A DNA stretch of 64,000 nt from Verrucomicrobiota bacterium (GCA_027622665.1 JAQBYT010000003.1:163455-227454), one strand, 5' to 3'; shown: positions 57,001 to 63,000, counted from the stretch's first letter. Program-made: the numbers.

Positions 57001-60000
57001 TTGATTTCACGAATCTTGTCCCGCTTGTCGTTCAACAACTCCGCTCGGTCCGAGGCGAAATCGCCATGCTTGGACCATGTTGGACGGAGAAGGTGGATTG
57101 TCGACTCCCTCTCGCCGGCTTCTATACCCAATTCCTCGGAGCCATCATGGTCGATGCGGAGACTTACCTTATAAACATCGAGCACCGAAGACAGCTCGAC
57201 CTCCGTCTCCCAGCGAATCTCCCCAAGAGTCAATGTTTCGAGGTCGCCCCCTTCCGAAATCTTTTCATAGTCGGGTTCAGCAAAAATTTGGCTTCGAGCC
57301 CATAGTAAATCCTGCTCCATTTCCCGGGTATCCTTCATGTGGCGCGTGAAACGAGCCGCCACAAAAGCTCCATCCACCAGATAAACCGCCGCCATCCCAA
57401 ACAAAGCAAGAGCAACCAAGACCTCCACAAGCAAATAGCCTTTTGAAAGGCGGAAATCGTTGTAGGGGGGAGGTATCTCAGGGATCGCCCCCCTAGGTCT
57501 TCGAAAAACTGATTTCATGAGATACATGCCTAGCTCCAATAGATGTCATTTGAGACTCGCACAATTTCACTCATTCACCGTCATCAACCACAACAAAGCC
57601 GGAAAAGGGATCGAAACGCAAAACCTGCTCCTTGTTCGCGAACGCGATCTTAGCTTGAAAAGGGGGGCTCACACCCGAGTGGAAGGGAATCCTCGTCAAA
57701 ACCAAGTGTTCGTCCTCCAATTTAGTGGCCCCTCCCCCCTCTCCGGCCAAGGGGCCTTCAGCCAGAAAAGTGACCTCGGGCAGGTCCCATTCCTCCTCCT
57801 CCTCCTCGCCAGACGGCATGTCTTCGTAGATAGCATGTTCGGCTAGAACCGCACCCCCCGCATCGGTCACCAGGAAGGTGGCTCGTTTTCCATCATAACG
57901 CAGAAACGCAGGGGCCTTTCGCTCACTAGCATGGTAAACTGCATCCAAAACGGCCCGCTTCAAAACCCGATCGGGAGGTTCCATCTTGGCGGCATCGATC
58001 ATGCCCACAGCTCCAACAGCAACCATGCCGGCTATTATCACCAACAAGGCAAGAACAAGAAGGATTTCGACTATGGTGAAGCCCCGGCACCGCATACCTT
58101 CTCTTTCCACTCTTCGATATTATGGACCTGTTGGGGAATCCCAATTGCCTATTTCCGTGCCATCGGGAGCCATTGTCCACAAATCGAAACTCCCGGGATT
58201 ACGTTGACCGGGAGGAGGAGTGTACTGATATTTCTTTTTCCAAGGATCGAGAAGACCGCTGGCCTTCTCGACCACTGCGGTTTTTACTCCCGGCGGCGGA
58301 GTCAATAGGGCATCTAAAGTTGTGGGATATTCTCCCGCTTGTAGGTAATAAGTTGTCACAGCCGCCTTGCCCGGACCATTCACCCAGTTGCGAGCGGTAT
58401 TGATCTTGCCTGCCTCGAAAGAACCAGTGAGGTTATAGATAGTCAAACCCGCCACCAACCCGATCATCGCCAAGACGATGAGCATCTCAACCAAGGTGAA
58501 GCCTGCACGACGCTTTGCATCTATGCTGAAACAGTATTCTTTGGAATTATTTTTCATCGTCGTATAAGGTTGTGAGAAGAAGTAGAAACATTTACTTTAG
58601 AAACTTAATTAAAAGGCAAAGGCACCATCAAGCGCAAGTGCCGAAAATACGATACGCCACCTACAATCCGTCCGAAAACTCTTGCCTTAGGCAAGCTTAG
58701 TCGCAACATTTAAGGCTATGGAACTAGGAGATTACTTGCCTGTGCTGATCCAAATCCTACTGGCGTTTGGAATTGGTTTCGGCATATTGATAGCAAGCCA
58801 TATTTTCGGCCAAAAGGCCCGTCACAGCAAAATCAAGGATTCCCCCTATGAATGCGGATTGGCGGCTGAGGTATCGGGCAAGACGCGGTACTCGGTCAAG
58901 TTTTACGTCACCGCCATGCTCTTCATCCTTTTCGACGTGGATGTTGTCTTCCTTATACCTTGGACCCTTACGCACCGGGAATTGGCTGCCGCAGGTATTC
59001 CGATACTCGGGCCCATGCTTTTCTTTACGGCGATTTTGGCGGCGGGGCTCGTTTACGAACTTAAGAGCGGCGCCCTGGAATGGGACAGTTGATAACGGTC
59101 GCGCCAAGGCTTGGAGGGGCCCGAGCCTAAAAGGCTTGCGGAAATCCCATGCGCATTGACCGCTATATTGCCTCTTCGCGAATAATTGACCTCAAAAGCA
59201 AGGACTTGCCCACGGCCTACGCCGAATTGTTAGCCACCTTTGCTCCAGTTCTTGGGAGAAAGATGCCCCGCAAGGCAATCCTCCAGGAACTATTGGATCG
59301 AGAAGCCTCACTGACCAGTTACTTGGGAGAAGGCGTAGCTCTTCCCCACGCCAGAATTCCCATGAAAAGGTCCTACGCCCTCGCCATCGGGCGTTGCCCG
59401 GCGGGACTAGCTTTCGAGGGAAAGGAAACATACGAGGAAGTACGCTTCGTCTTCATGTTGCTCGCCAACGAAAAGGCTCAAAACTACCTATCGTTTCTCG
59501 CCACTCTTGCCCGAAACTTTCAGGACAAGGCGGTCATGGACCCCCTGTGGATGGCTCGGGAGGTCAGCGAGTTCCGCAAGGCCGTAAGATCCACCTTCGC
59601 AGGAACCGACGATCGCCCCGCTCGCCGCCGCACCAAGTTCAATAAACTGCTGACCGACGAAGCCGCCAAAATTGCAAAAGCGGCCGAGTGCTCGTCGATT
59701 TTAGTCTTTGCCGACGTATTCCCTCCCGCGCTCGCCCCTCGTTTAAATTTTCCGGGTTTCAAGGTAATCGTCGCCGGAGAAAATGTGTCGGAAGATGACT
59801 TGGTCCTACACCGAGCGGATGCAGTTCTTGCGGTGCGGGCTCATTCTCGGGCTCGCCTTTCCCAGCTTCGCGCCGCCATCCTGTTGGGCATGACCCGAGG
59901 CGTCTTCGGCTTGGAGGATCGCGTATGTTGCATCGGAGGCATACCGGGCAGCGGCCAACTCGACACCTTGCTGGTAGTGGAGGTGGACGAAGAATTCGAG

Positions 60001-63000
60001 TCGGTCGTAGCTCCGGGAGAAGAAATGTTGCCCCACGATATTTCTGCAGCCGCATTGGAGCGCCTAATCGCCTTGGCCACTGAGCTAGCGTCGACAGGCA
60101 GAGAGGGGAAATCCATCGGAGCCTTGTTTGTTCTAGGGGACCACGAATCCGTAAAAAAACGAGTAAAGCCACTCATCCTCAATCCTTTCCACGGATACGA
60201 CGAAGAAGACCGAAATGTGCTCAACCCCTTTATGGACGAAACCATCAAGGAGTTGGCGTACATCGACGGCGCTTTCATCATTCGCGGAGACGGCGTAGTC
60301 GAATCCGCCGGCAGCATGGTACAGGCCCGGGCAGACGAAATAGAGCTTCCGGGCGGTCTCGGCACACGTCATGCAGCCGCAGCCGCCATCACATACGTCA
60401 CGAACGCTCTTGCATTGGTCGTTTCCTCCTCGGGCCAAGTAACCCTTTTCCGGAAGGGACGCATGTTCACTCTTTTCGAAAAGTCGGAAGGAAGATCCCT
60501 GTGACATGGCCATGCCTGCGGACACTTCGCAACACATCGGATTTTATGGAGGCAGTTTCGACCCCATTCACAACGGTCACCTCGAACTCGCCAAGGACCT
60601 GCTCGAACAAGCAAAGCTCCACCGCATCCTTTTCTCTCCAGCCAACCGAGCCCCCCTGCGAGACCACTCCTACGCAGCCTCCCCAACCGATCGATTTGCA
60701 ATGGTAAGCGCAGCAGTCGCCGACAGTCCGGGCCTAGAAGCCATCGATGTAGAAATTCAAGAAGGTGGTACGAACTTCACTTTGGACACTCTGAGAATGC
60801 TCAAACGCAAAATGCCGGACGCGATCTTCTCCGTAATCATCGGAGCGGACCAATTAGAAAAGCTTCCCCGCTGGCAACGCATCGAAGAACTTTCGAAAGA
60901 AACGGAGTTCCTCGTGCTCGCTCGTCCCGGACACCAACTGTCGCCTCCCCCCGAACTAACCGATCTTCGTATGCGTTCTTTCAACACCCGCGAATTCGAA
61001 GTCTCTTCTTCCGAAGTCAGAAACCGCATTCACGATCATTTACCTTTTCAAGAACTGGTTCCCACGCCAGTCGCTTCCATAATCACCCAACGAAAGCTAT
61101 ACCGCTGAAGACGAGCACGAAAGAAAAACCAATGCCGGTGATCAACAAACCGGAATTGATAAAAAACTTAAAGGTTTGCTGTGAGGCTCTCCTCGACAAG
61201 AAAGCGGAAGATCTTACACTTCTATACTTCGGGGAAACTTCTCCCCTCACGGACTGTTTCGTTATAGCGACAGGCAATTCCGGCCCACACTTGCGCGCCA
61301 TGCGCGACAATGTCGAGAAAGCCCTCAAGGAACACAAGATAGCGCTGTTCTCCAAGGAGCGATACCAGCCCAGCGGTTGGCTGGTGCTCGACGCCATTGA
61401 ATTCGTCGTCCACCTATTCTCGTCCGAACAACGCGATCGCTACGCGCTCGAGGATCTCTGGAAAGACGCCCCGAAAATCGATCCCGAAAAACTATAATCC
61501 GCATCATGCGCCCCAACCTCCCAATAAGCTCCGGGCGATAAACAATTCGCGATGCTTTAGGTTAAGCCTCAACACGACCAAGACCATTAAAAACCTACCT
61601 ACCTACGGTTACCGATTCTTCAACTTCCTCCTTTTCGACTTCCCTAAAAAAGAAAACCCTCATTCACTGAAAACATGAAACAAAACACCTCAAGACGTAA
61701 CTTCCTCAAAGGCGCGAGCCTTGCCTCAGCCCCCTTTATCCTCCCCTCGCACGTGTGGGCCGCCAAGGGCGACAATTCTCCGAACAACCGCATCAGCGTA
61801 GCCGTTATCGGCCCCGGCAAGCAAGGTCGCAGCCACGTTCACCGCCTGCTCCGCAACCCCGAGACCCAAGTCGTGGGATTCGCAGAAGTCGCCAAGGTGC
61901 GGACGGATCACACCAAGGAGCTCATCGAGGGCCACTACGCCAAGAACACACCCGCAGGGAAATGGAAAGGTCTGACGATCACCAAGGACTACCGCGAACT
62001 CCTCGCCATGAAAAGCGTGGACGCCGTGCTAATCGCCACCCCAGACCACTGGCACGGTGAAGCCACCATACTCTCCGCCCGCGCCGGCAAGCACGTCTAC
62101 TGCGAAAAACCCATTTCCCTCACCATCGCCGAGGGCCGCCGCATGGTCGATGAGGTAAAGAAAAACAAAGTCATCTTTCAAACCGGCAGCCAACAACGCA
62201 CCGAATTCGGCGGCAAGTTTCGCCGCACCGTCGAGATGATCCACAGCGGCGCAATCGGCAAGATAAAGAAAATCCAAGTATGCGTAGGCGGTCCGCCCAA
62301 GCCCTGCGACCTAGCCACACAACCCGTGCCCGAGGGCATCGACTGGGACGCCTGGCAAGGTCCCGCCCCCACTCGCGGTTACAACAAGGAGCTTTGCCCG
62401 GACAACGTGCACAACCACTTCCCGCGTTGGCGAGCCTACACCGAATACTGCAACGGCTACCTCGCCGACATGGGAGCCCACCACTTCGACATCGGCCAGT
62501 GGGGCATGGACGCGGACGACACCGGACCAGTAAAAGTCATTCCCCCGAAATCCGGAGAAAAAGGACTCAAGCTCATCTACGCAAACGGCATTGAAGTCGA
62601 GCACGGCTCCCTTCCCGACTGGGGTGGCGGAACCGTCTTCTACGGAACCGAGGGCACCATCTGGGTCGACCGCGGCCCATGGAAGTCCGACCCCGTAAAC
62701 CTGATAAAGGAATTCAAAGCCACCGTCGAAATTCGCAAACCGAAGAGCCATCACGCCGACTGGCTCGACTGCATTCGTACGGGCAAGCAACCCCTCGCTC
62801 ACGTCGAGGCCGGACATCGCACCGCATCCCTTTGCCAACTATCCAACATCGGCTACGAACTTCGCCGCGAACTCGACTGGGATCCCAAAACCGAATCCTT
62901 CCCCAAGGACAAGGAAGCCCAAGCCCTCGTAGATCGAAAGCGCCGCAAGCAGTGGTACCGAATTTAAGGATAAGTCACCAAAAGTAGATCGAGAATTTTC

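Follow-up and report, generated by a model that had tools for sequence, protein, structure and literature searches.

A PTS EIIA-fused, DacZ-type diadenylate cyclase encoded behind nuoA in Opitutales and its possible control by the PTS relay

Among the described diadenylate cyclases, CdaA (DacA) of Firmicutes is in many species both essential and the only cyclase; three helices of its own anchor it in the membrane, and its regulators are CdaR and GlmM. EIIA-Ntr (PtsN) of Proteobacteria is a free protein that ends a transporter-less relay and regulates other proteins. The targets of PtsN include K+ transport (TrkA, KdpD), a process that is under c-di-AMP control in Firmicutes. A review (PMC10118264) describes PTS control of another nucleotide messenger: in Caulobacter, the hydrolysis of (p)ppGpp by Rel/SpoT is governed by EIIA-Ntr in its phosphorylated form. 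The archaeal DacZ/CdaZ enzymes, such as Haloferax volcanii DacZ and Methanocaldococcus jannaschii CdaZ, consist of a PK_C-like domain and a DAC core, and Braun 2019 (PMC6741144) characterizes DacZ as essential, Mn-dependent, and tied to osmoregulation. The same paper lists, after the Corrigan & Gruendling nomenclature, a 'DacD' class with five representatives, all from Opitutae: Lacunisphaera limnophila, Puniceicoccaceae, Coraliomargarita, 'Verrucomicrobia bacterium', and 'Opitutae bacterium'.

The window analyzed here is a stretch of 64,000 nucleotides from a marine Verrucomicrobiota bacterium of the order Opitutales, whose assembly (66 contigs, 93.53% complete) was searched as a whole. One of its genes, dac, encodes a cyclase that shares the PK_C-like domain and DAC core with archaeal DacZ/CdaZ, the catalytic DAC fold with CdaA, and the fold and active-site motif of its EIIA domain with EIIA-Ntr. 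The features of this locus are as follows.

58558..58717, no strand assigned: intergenic region between a divergent gspG-like pseudopilin gene and nuoA (ORF map)
58718..59092, + strand: nuoA, complex I subunit A/ND3 family, 124 aa (PF00507, 1.5e-28)
59093..59148, + strand: nuoA–dac spacer, 56 nt (ORF map)
59149..60504, + strand: dac, EIIA_2/DacZ_P/DAC diadenylate cyclase gene, 451 aa, protein P0001 (Pfam, NCBIfam, AlphaFold2)
59266..59583, + strand: PtsN-like PTS EIIA type-2 domain of the cyclase (PF00359, 2.4e-18)
59347..59349, + strand: codon of His67, the predicted phospho-acceptor, in GEGVALPH (alignment with PtsN 4gqx/3urr)
59647..60000, + strand: DacZ_P domain, PK_C-like, probable sensor/dimerisation domain, residues 167–284 (PF21755, 3.6e-12)
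60088..60462, + strand: DAC catalytic domain, residues 314–438 (PF02457, 1.3e-19)
60506..61108, + strand: nadD, nicotinate-nucleotide adenylyltransferase (NF000840, 157.1 bits against a cut-off of 150)
61132..61497, + strand: rsfS, ribosome silencing factor (TIGR00090, 93.7 bits against a cut-off of 56.9; Pfam match 5.2e-26)

The genome-wide survey's note had placed an EIIA_2-DacZ_P-DAC gene 56 bp behind nuoA, followed by nadD and rsfS, and the ORF map agrees with this order; the gap between dac and nadD is 1 nt. The domain boundaries and E-values given there for the cyclase were also reproduced by the Pfam search, with PTS_EIIA_2 at residues 40–145 and the other two domains as listed above. 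The scores are 66.9 bits against a cut-off of 27 for EIIA_2, 46.5 against 27.4 for DacZ_P, which lies directly N-terminal to DAC, and 70.4 against the curated cut-off of 27 for DAC. Several relatives also match PK_C (PF02887) weakly. On the DAC side, the best NCBIfam match is the haloarchaeal DacZ family NF041371 (1.3e-29), where the score of 103.4 bits against an equivalog cut-off of 430 makes the cyclase a relative and not a member of that family. Unlike the archaeal enzymes, it is bacterial and has an extra N-terminal EIIA domain.

The EIIA fold occupies approximately residues 1–150 of the cyclase, and the motif GEGVALPH lies at residues 60–67. The solved structures closest to this part by sequence are those of PtsN (4gqx and 3urr), in which the H of 'GEGVAIPHGRI' aligns with His67, and its best fold matches in Foldseek are EIIA-Ntr structures (2a0j, 3urr, and 4gqx; TM 0.80–0.82 on the target). 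The PtsN equivalog cut-offs were, however, missed (TIGR01419, 41.2 against 138.7 bits; NF008145, 23.4 against 221 bits). The DAC part was matched by fold to CdaA structures. No membrane segment is predicted in the AlphaFold2 model of the cyclase (mean pLDDT 90.0, pTM 0.65); in contrast to CdaA with its own anchor, the protein carries the EIIA and DacZ_P domains instead.

Conservation was examined in an alignment of 89 diverse relatives sharing 25–84% identity. In the DAC domain, the DGA motif is at residues 373–375 and the RH pair at 407–408: D373, G374, R407, and H408 are kept in all 89 sequences and A375 in 86. The third residue of RHR is Ala in the cyclase (RHA), a feature common to 53 of the 89. 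In the EIIA domain, His67 is kept in 85, R51 in 84, and E52 in 88 relatives. The second conserved His of EIIA domains, which matters for handing the phosphate on, rather than for its receipt, is Tyr113 in the clade of the window (H in 53, Y in 23, and F in 6 of the 89 sequences). The 451-aa protein is probably the housekeeping synthase of the organism, with c-di-AMP as its presumed product. It would have originated from a DacZ-type soluble cyclase (PK_C-like DacZ_P plus DAC) that gained an N-terminal PtsN-like EIIA domain.

The full-length fusion was found in all 26 sampled genomes of the same order, in none of 24 genomes of the other orders of the class, and in 3 of 100 genomes from the other classes of the phylum. 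It is thus the standard cyclase of the order, Opitutales, as far as the 26 sampled genomes are concerned. In public annotation it appears as DisA/EIIA or 'PTS sugar transporter subunit IIA'. The 2013 review by Corrigan and Gruendling reportedly draws DacD as PTS_EIIA_2 plus DAC. The architecture and the Opitutae origin of the cyclase agree with DacD as reportedly drawn there, and the DacD representatives come from the lineage in which the EIIA-fused cyclase is universal. There is probably no difference between the two, and the fusion is most likely a member of this already catalogued class. The earlier suggestion of a new diadenylate cyclase class is not supported: the fusion is universal among the sampled genomes of the order and publicly annotated, and the DacD members listed in Braun 2019 (PMC6741144) are all Opitutae. 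In the literature searched, no experimental study of any fusion member was found.

Next to the cyclase gene, nuoA is the single Oxidored_q4 gene of the assembly. NuoA scores 99.3 bits for PF00507 (cut-off 23.3) and falls below the NCBIfam equivalog cut-off (83.7 against 145 bits); it is an ordinary protein of 124 aa with no extra domain. The survey's statement that nuoA is missing from the operon beginning with nuoB holds: on contig C12, nuoB is preceded by a cNMP-binding gene and followed by nuoC, with no nuoA upstream. Among 80 sampled dac loci, nuoA lies directly upstream of dac on the same strand in 71 (gaps of 1–313 nt, median 60), and the pair occurs in 6 of 6 same-order genomes as well as in the genome of the window. 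The gene upstream of this pair varies. Downstream of dac, nadD–rsfS is found in 30 of the 80 loci, all belonging to the clade of the window, and trpA in 33, with other genes elsewhere. The nuoA–dac pair is thus the sole conserved part of the neighborhood across the 80 loci, while the nadD/rsfS linkage is specific to the window's own clade, and the proposed coupling of the cyclase to NAD supply is not supported.

The pairing is present on both sides of the deepest split in the sampled cyclase tree, and it has been lost at least four times there. In one complete chromosome, dac, nuoA, and nuoB are far apart, and in one genome (G152) neither nuoA nor nuoB was found, although the fused cyclase is present. 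In other orders, 13 of 20 loci have a solitary nuoA, and its neighbors vary. Among more distant fusions, nuoA is upstream in 1 of 16 metagenomic loci and in none of the 3 genomes from outside the class. The nuoA–dac pair is probably an ancestral gene order of the sampled Opitutales, in which a free-floating nuoA had joined the cyclase gene. The pairing is conserved but dispensable. Accordingly, of the link to complex I that had been described as fixed in a whole order, the ancestry and the high frequency stand, while the fixation is not supported, in view of the losses, the solitary nuoA of other orders, and G152.

Regarding transcription, the region 58558..58717 is presumed to contain the promoter of the nuoA–dac unit; a scan of its + strand for the sigma-70 pattern gave no site, and one RNA-library contig (X1 record 2) extends from 58672 into nuoA. 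The + strand of the nuoA–dac spacer showed no terminator-like or promoter-like pattern and no Rfam match. This spacer is covered by two RNA-library contigs, X3 record 15 (59072–59372) and X5 record 22 (59060–59511); the latter comes from a seawater RNA library and includes, on either side of the spacer, 33 nt of nuoA and 363 nt of dac. The nadD–rsfS junction is bridged by X3 record 19 and X1 record 7, and the dac–nadD junction by no RNA-library contig. These contigs may contain DNA, and a single transcript is not provable from them. Probably, dac is co-transcribed with nuoA and, in the clade of the window, also with nadD and rsfS.

DAC and PTS_EIIA_2 each occur in a single gene of the assembly, and the profile searches agree with the survey in finding one carrier gene each for DAC, PTS_EIIA_2, and Oxidored_q4. 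As the only cyclase found in its genome, the protein resembles CdaA. The completeness of the assembly (93.5%) is a limit on the counts of one DAC and one EIIA. EI, HPr, and HprK, which had been reported as present, were all matched: HPr has a His site (GVHARPA) and a Ser site (GKSIMG), HprK is full-length, and EI is a 591-aa ORF. Four further families, PTS_EIIC (PF02378), EIIA-man, EIIA_1, and PTS_IIB (PF02302), had no match in the assembly. The claim that no other EIIA and no EIIB/EIIC exist is thus borne out for these four families. The label of a 'nitrogen' PTS is not supported. In EI, PEP-utilisers_N starts approximately 12 residues past the start codon, which leaves no room for the N-terminal GAF sensor domain that marks EI-Ntr (PtsP); with an EI that lacks this domain, nothing points to nitrogen sensing. 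The system further differs from the EIIA-Ntr PTS in that HprK is present and the EIIA and its presumed target form one protein. The likeness would lie in a relay that, apparently with no transporters, ends on a regulatory EIIA.

Because the EIIA His is conserved, this EIIA is the only one found, and EI, HPr, and HprK occur while none of the transporter parts searched for does, these sequences are most naturally read as pointing to a PTS input into c-di-AMP synthesis. PEP would donate the phosphate, which EI and HPr(His~P) would relay to His67 in the EIIA domain, and no sugar-transporting EIIB/C that could drain it was found among the searched families. The phosphorylation level of His67 would track the PEP/pyruvate ratio and also the phosphorylation of HPr at Ser, which HprK controls. 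Depending on its state, the EIIA domain would then increase or reduce the activity or the productive pairing of the DAC domains, so that the c-di-AMP output would follow the carbon and energy state, in either direction. The genome also encodes a PgpH-type HD phosphodiesterase candidate and TrkA_C-domain proteins, and therefore a full c-di-AMP circuit is plausible in this organism. A PTS input is also favored by one metagenome contig on which ptsI directly precedes, by 24 nt, a DacZ_P-DAC gene that has no EIIA part.

This reading, an EIIA-fused cyclase under the control of the PTS relay, is considered the best explanation as a whole and is held with somewhat better than even confidence. A different view is that the EIIA domain has lost its role as a phospho-receiver and now has a structural function or one in dimerisation or ligand/protein binding, while the PTS proteins act elsewhere. 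The Tyr at the second His in the clade of the window, the loss of His67 in 4 of the 89 relatives, and the TIGR01419 score far below its cut-off are consistent with this view, as is the gene context: no PTS gene adjoins the cyclase gene in 163 loci, except for the ptsI of that EIIA-less gene on the metagenome contig. However, His67, R51, and E52 are kept at 94–99% down to 25% identity, which is hard to explain unless they have a catalytic or phospho-acceptor use, and EI and HPr would be left with no EIIA partner in the assembly. We regard a non-receiver EIIA as unlikely. It is extremely improbable that the DAC domain makes another nucleotide signal or serves defence instead of housekeeping c-di-AMP signalling. 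Such activities of DAC domains in anti-phage systems are described in recent preprints, but the DAC domain here is the only one of its genome, its canonical DGA and RH residues are accompanied by the phosphodiesterase candidate, and the gene is universal in the sampled genomes of the order and placed among housekeeping genes.

The nuoA–dac pairing may itself be functional: NuoA might tether the soluble cyclase to the membrane or complex I, or co-expression might couple c-di-AMP to respiratory capacity. NuoA has three membrane helices, the same number as the anchor of CdaA. That 71 of the 80 loci keep the pair amid changing upstream and downstream genes, and that it occurs on both sides of the deepest split, argues for such a role, whereas the repeated losses, the retention of the cyclase in G152, the unrelated neighbors of nuoA in other orders, its rarity beside distant fusions, and the ordinary domain content of NuoA argue against it. 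A functional pairing is accordingly judged quite unlikely. A combination of this idea with the PTS-controlled cyclase is very doubtful: NuoA, with its three helices, would draw the soluble EIIA-DacZ cyclase to the membrane or to complex I, much as CdaA is anchored by helices of its own, and the c-di-AMP output would then integrate the PTS phosphorylation state with the state of respiration or of the membrane. If true, recruitment by NuoA would constitute a second-messenger node that joins carbon status, respiration, and ion/osmotic homeostasis.

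The locus consists of four tightly packed genes on the + strand of the window (nuoA, dac, nadD and rsfS in the ORF map), and the architecture and gene order that the genome-wide survey's note had described were borne out overall. These genes and their flanks are as follows.

55085–58557, − strand: type II secretion pseudopilin-like run (GspG-like, N_methyl proteins, GspK-like), divergent from nuoA
58718–59092, + strand: nuoA, 124 aa
59149–60504, + strand: cyclase gene dac, 451 aa
60506–61108, + strand: nadD, above the NCBIfam cut-off
61132–61497, + strand: rsfS, above the NCBIfam cut-off
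61675–62967, downstream of rsfS: GFO/IDH/MocA oxidoreductase, best NCBIfam match glycoside 3-dehydrogenase, below the cut-off
63078–63902: formylglycine-generating-enzyme-type gene

The pseudopilin run is kept upstream of nuoA in the window's own clade only, and gspG was found upstream solely in that clade among 80 compared loci. The oxidoreductase and the formylglycine-generating-enzyme-type gene are both in keeping with a lifestyle rich in polysaccharides and sulfatases.

The three domains of the cyclase were reproduced with Pfam: PTS_EIIA_2 at residues 40–145 (2.4e-18), DacZ_P at 167–284 (3.6e-12) and DAC at 314–438 (1.3e-19), with the GEGVALPH motif of the EIIA domain at residues 60–67. 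The nearest NCBIfam models are those of haloarchaeal DacZ, fructose-type EIIA and PtsN, each matched far under its equivalog cut-off. Among solved structures, the N-terminal domain is closest in sequence to PtsN (4gqx and 3urr); since 'GEGVAIPHGRI' of PtsN aligns with 'GEGVALPHARI' of the cyclase, His67 falls on the phospho-acceptor His. An AlphaFold2 model based on 89 aligned relatives (mean pLDDT 90.0, pTM 0.65) was compared with known structures by Foldseek: the predicted N-terminal domain matched the EIIA-Ntr structures 2a0j, 3urr and 4gqx (TM 0.80–0.82 on the target), and the predicted C-terminal domain matched CdaA, DisA and DacM. In the ESM Atlas, the matches were confined to the cyclase's own family, mostly from Verrucomicrobiota.

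The conservation of individual residues was examined in an alignment of 89 sequences, composed of the query, 10 homologues and 78 of the 150 listed cluster representatives. For the selection, Pfam was run on the 89 representatives long enough for three domains, 85 of which carry PTS_EIIA_2 and DAC; 11 with other or extended architectures were left out (P0130, P0134, P0150, P0168, P0196, P0200, P0201, P0224, P0229, P0248 and P0250). At identities of 25–84%, His67 is conserved in 85 of the 89 sequences, R51 in 84 and E52 in 88, while D373, G374, R407 and H408 are invariant and A375 occurs in 86. Position 113, that of the second EIIA-typical His, is occupied by His in 53 sequences, by Tyr in 23 (the window's clade among these) and by Phe in 6. 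The second His of EIIA serves in handing the phosphate to EIIB, not in accepting it; given this role, Tyr at position 113 would suit a terminal phosphate receiver. Other architectures were also seen among the relatives (P0200, P0168, P0150, P0229): DHH/DHHA1 + DacZ_P + DAC, possibly a phosphodiesterase-cyclase fusion; a permuted DacZ_P-DAC-EIIA_2; acyltransferase-EIIA_2-DacZ_P-DAC; and a DacZ_P-DAC-DAO oxidoreductase.

The genome encodes the upstream members of a phosphorelay. In the assembly (66 contigs, 93.53% complete), one DAC, one PTS_EIIA_2 and one nuoA were found, as had been claimed, and EI, HPr and HprK are all present. In HPr, the His site (GVHARPA) is accompanied by the Ser site for HprK (GKSIMG), and HprK is full-length. 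The N-terminal domain of EI (591 aa) starts about 12 residues past the start codon, so that this protein has no GAF domain. The survey's statement that no other EIIA and no EIIB/C exist holds for four families, PTS_EIIC PF02378, EIIA-man, EIIA_1 and PTS_IIB PF02302, none of which had a match in the assembly. A PgpH-type 7TM-HD protein and TrkA_C-domain proteins are encoded as candidates for c-di-AMP breakdown and reception, respectively; the c-di-AMP riboswitch RF00379 was not found in the genome.

A search of 5.8 billion proteins with the cyclase gave 1739 matches at E ≤ 1e-5; the best 120 of these are nearly all three-domain proteins from Opitutales, Opitutae and Coraliomargarita, with source names such as 'diadenylate cyclase', 'DisA .../mannitol/fructose-specific ...' and 'PTS sugar transporter subunit IIA'. 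In a 50%-identity library, 2417 matches were obtained at E ≤ 1e-3 and 290 at E ≤ 1e-30. At least 574 stretches with a cyclase relative occur in a species-level genome collection, and the 80 loci kept are labelled almost entirely as Opitutales, Opitutia, Puniceicoccaceae or Coraliomargaritaceae. Across 151 evenly sampled genomes of the phylum, the full-length fusion (profile positions 1–445, E ≤ 1e-148) was found in all 26 further Opitutales genomes, was absent from the 24 sampled in the remaining orders of the class, and turned up in 3 of 100 from other classes. The fusion is thus the ordinary cyclase of Opitutales and sporadic elsewhere. Two contigs of MAGs labelled Polaribacter and Zhongshania (L042, L067) carry an Opitutales-type nuoA-dac-trpA locus and are nested in the Opitutales cyclase tree; they were probably mis-binned.

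In the best-supported reading, the protein is a DacZ-type enzyme that makes c-di-AMP as a housekeeping function and is tuned through phosphorylation at His67; the phosphorylation, its sign and the product are what we infer. The phosphate would be passed from EI through HPr to His67, setting the cyclase activity. As the PTS is apparently without a transporter, it would report the PEP/pyruvate ratio together with the HprK-sensed metabolic state. In Proteobacteria, K+ uptake is among the targets of PtsN (TrkA, KdpD), and elsewhere it is c-di-AMP that governs this process; the fusion may thus apply the same logic by way of a second messenger. A published parallel to the proposed control is found in Caulobacter, in which, according to a review, EIIA-Ntr~P controls (p)ppGpp hydrolysis (PMC10118264). 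A further hint comes from a metagenome contig (L177:1713–4424), on which a DacZ_P-DAC gene without EIIA (317 aa) begins 24 nt after the end of ptsI (EI, 577 aa). This ptsI, the only PTS gene found adjoining a cyclase in 163 loci, represents a second kind of PTS-DacZ association. Within the survey's interpretation, PTS input into c-di-AMP synthesis is the part that gained support; a new cyclase class, a complex I link fixed in the order and a coupling to NAD supply were not supported.

For the link to complex I, we examined the pairing of nuoA with dac. In tblastn searches with the window's proteins, 71 of the 80 loci have nuoA as the immediate upstream neighbour of dac, in the same orientation, with gaps of 1–313 nt (median 60); the nine others are L064, L065, L069, L073, L076, L078, L079, L080 and L083. 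The flanks of the pair vary, trpA being located behind dac in 33 loci. On a quick maximum-likelihood cyclase tree of 80 rows (truncated L034 left out), the absence of nuoA requires four changes and the pairing occurs on both sides of the deepest split, which indicates that it dates from the ancestor of the sampled family, with four or more later losses. In the lineages that lost it, nuoA is still solitary, adjoining ffh, an FKBP gene or a TrkA_C transporter gene, and dac is located behind queC or a Metallophos gene. On the complete chromosome of G151, dac (~0.78 Mb), nuoA (~1.19 Mb) and nuoB (~2.72 Mb) are far apart. In genome G152, whose completeness is not established, the fusion is present and neither nuoA nor nuoB was found. 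Among distant fusions, an upstream nuoA was seen in a single one of the 16 full-length metagenomic loci (L190, which at 43% identity is the nearest) and in none of three out-of-class genomes. Prediction of a complex from the cyclase and NuoA alignments gave a score of 0.00 in two runs, a value uninformative either way.

The survey had also noted that nuoA is missing from the nuo operon, and this was confirmed: on contig C12 of the same genome, nuoB has nuoC behind it and a cNMP-binding gene in front. The latter (L087:2230–3324; 364 aa, cyclic-nucleotide-binding domain) occupies the place expected for nuoA. Of 20 loci drawn from 20 further families of the class (L095–L114), 13 have a solitary nuoA among unrelated genes, and in the remaining 7 nuoB-nuoC come behind nuoA; resemblance to the window's nuoA is greatest in the solitary copies (39–47% vs 28–36% identity). 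The 'displaced' nuoA is therefore a class-wide feature that was not caused by the cyclase. Many of these genomes have two nuoA genes. The idea that a free ptsN stood beside the solitary nuoA of other orders and fused later was rejected, the neighbours being 5-FTHF cyclo-ligase, serA, pseudouridine synthase, Dabb, phosphoglucomutase and others. The pairing is a real, old, often kept and dispensable gene order, and nothing shows it to tie c-di-AMP to complex I. Two side observations concern loci without the pair. In Coraliomargarita lineages lacking the upstream nuoA, the gene immediately before dac, in the same orientation, encodes a calcineurin-like phosphoesterase (Metallophos; L065:4928–5908, L083:4793–5773). 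On a complete Coraliomargarita chromosome (L091:49–1188), a CitMHS-type transporter gene with two TrkA_C domains, a domain type known for c-di-AMP binding, adjoins the solitary nuoA.

Pattern scans for sigma-70 promoters and terminators, whose sites were no more frequent than in shuffled sequence, found none on the + strand in the nuoA upstream region or the nuoA-dac spacer, and Rfam gave no match at E ≤ 1 in 58000–62000. Contigs from four seawater RNA libraries (four studies) map on the locus with 90–99% identity. One (X5 record 22, 59060–59511) extends over the spacer together with 33 nt of nuoA on one side and 363 nt of dac on the other; X3 record 15 starts 21 nt inside nuoA, and X2 record 10 starts within the spacer. 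The nadD-rsfS junction is bridged by X1 record 7 and X3 record 19, and the dac-nadD junction is without a bridging contig, uncovered parts being uninformative. Because such contigs may include DNA and a single transcript is not provable from them, they lend weak support to nuoA-dac co-transcription.

As for the coupling to NAD supply, the nadD/rsfS neighbourhood proved peculiar to the window's family: nadD follows dac in 30 and rsfS in 28 of the 80 loci, every one of them in the window's clade. Outside the class, in genome G004 (L092:1480–3807), the fusion lies ~190 nt behind a nicotinate phosphoribosyltransferase (pncB-like) gene, a second NAD-pathway neighbour that does not recur in 18 other distant loci. 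As neither the 16 distant metagenomic fusions nor the two remaining out-of-class loci have nadD, rsfS or pncB beside them, a recurrent NAD-gene neighbourhood was rejected as a general pattern.

The claim of a new class was set aside, as the architecture has most likely been catalogued already and is found in all sampled genomes of the order. In the 2013 nomenclature of Corrigan and Gruendling, the class DacD is reportedly drawn as PTS_EIIA_2 + DAC. Braun et al. 2019 (PMC6741144) take over this bacterial class with five representatives: Lacunisphaera limnophila, Puniceicoccaceae bacterium, Coraliomargarita sp., 'Verrucomicrobia bacterium' and 'Opitutae bacterium'. According to a 2026 gut survey (PMC12901056), 19 of 21 DacZ-carrying gut species are Verrucomicrobiota, and Galperin split the DACs into 22 families. 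In a full-text literature search, with the Galperin 2023 census and Corrigan and Gruendling 2013 outside its coverage, the fusion was found neither described nor tested; the EIIA/PTS wording of related and citing papers contained nothing on an EIIA-DAC fusion. The nuoA-dac order was not found in print, and the search returned no paper with both c-di-AMP and nuoA. The cyclase most likely adds one more member to a class that is catalogued yet uncharacterised; to this the present analysis contributes the genome-level argument of a sole EIIA beside an intact relay, as well as a map of the nuoA pairing and its limits.

If phosphorylation of His67 does set the cyclase activity, direct control of c-di-AMP synthesis by a PTS would be seen here for the first time, in parallel to the EIIA-Ntr control of (p)ppGpp in Alphaproteobacteria. 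The idea is directly testable, since cultured relatives (Coraliomargarita, Lacunisphaera) exist. It would also provide a function for the transporter-less PTS of these abundant marine polysaccharide degraders.
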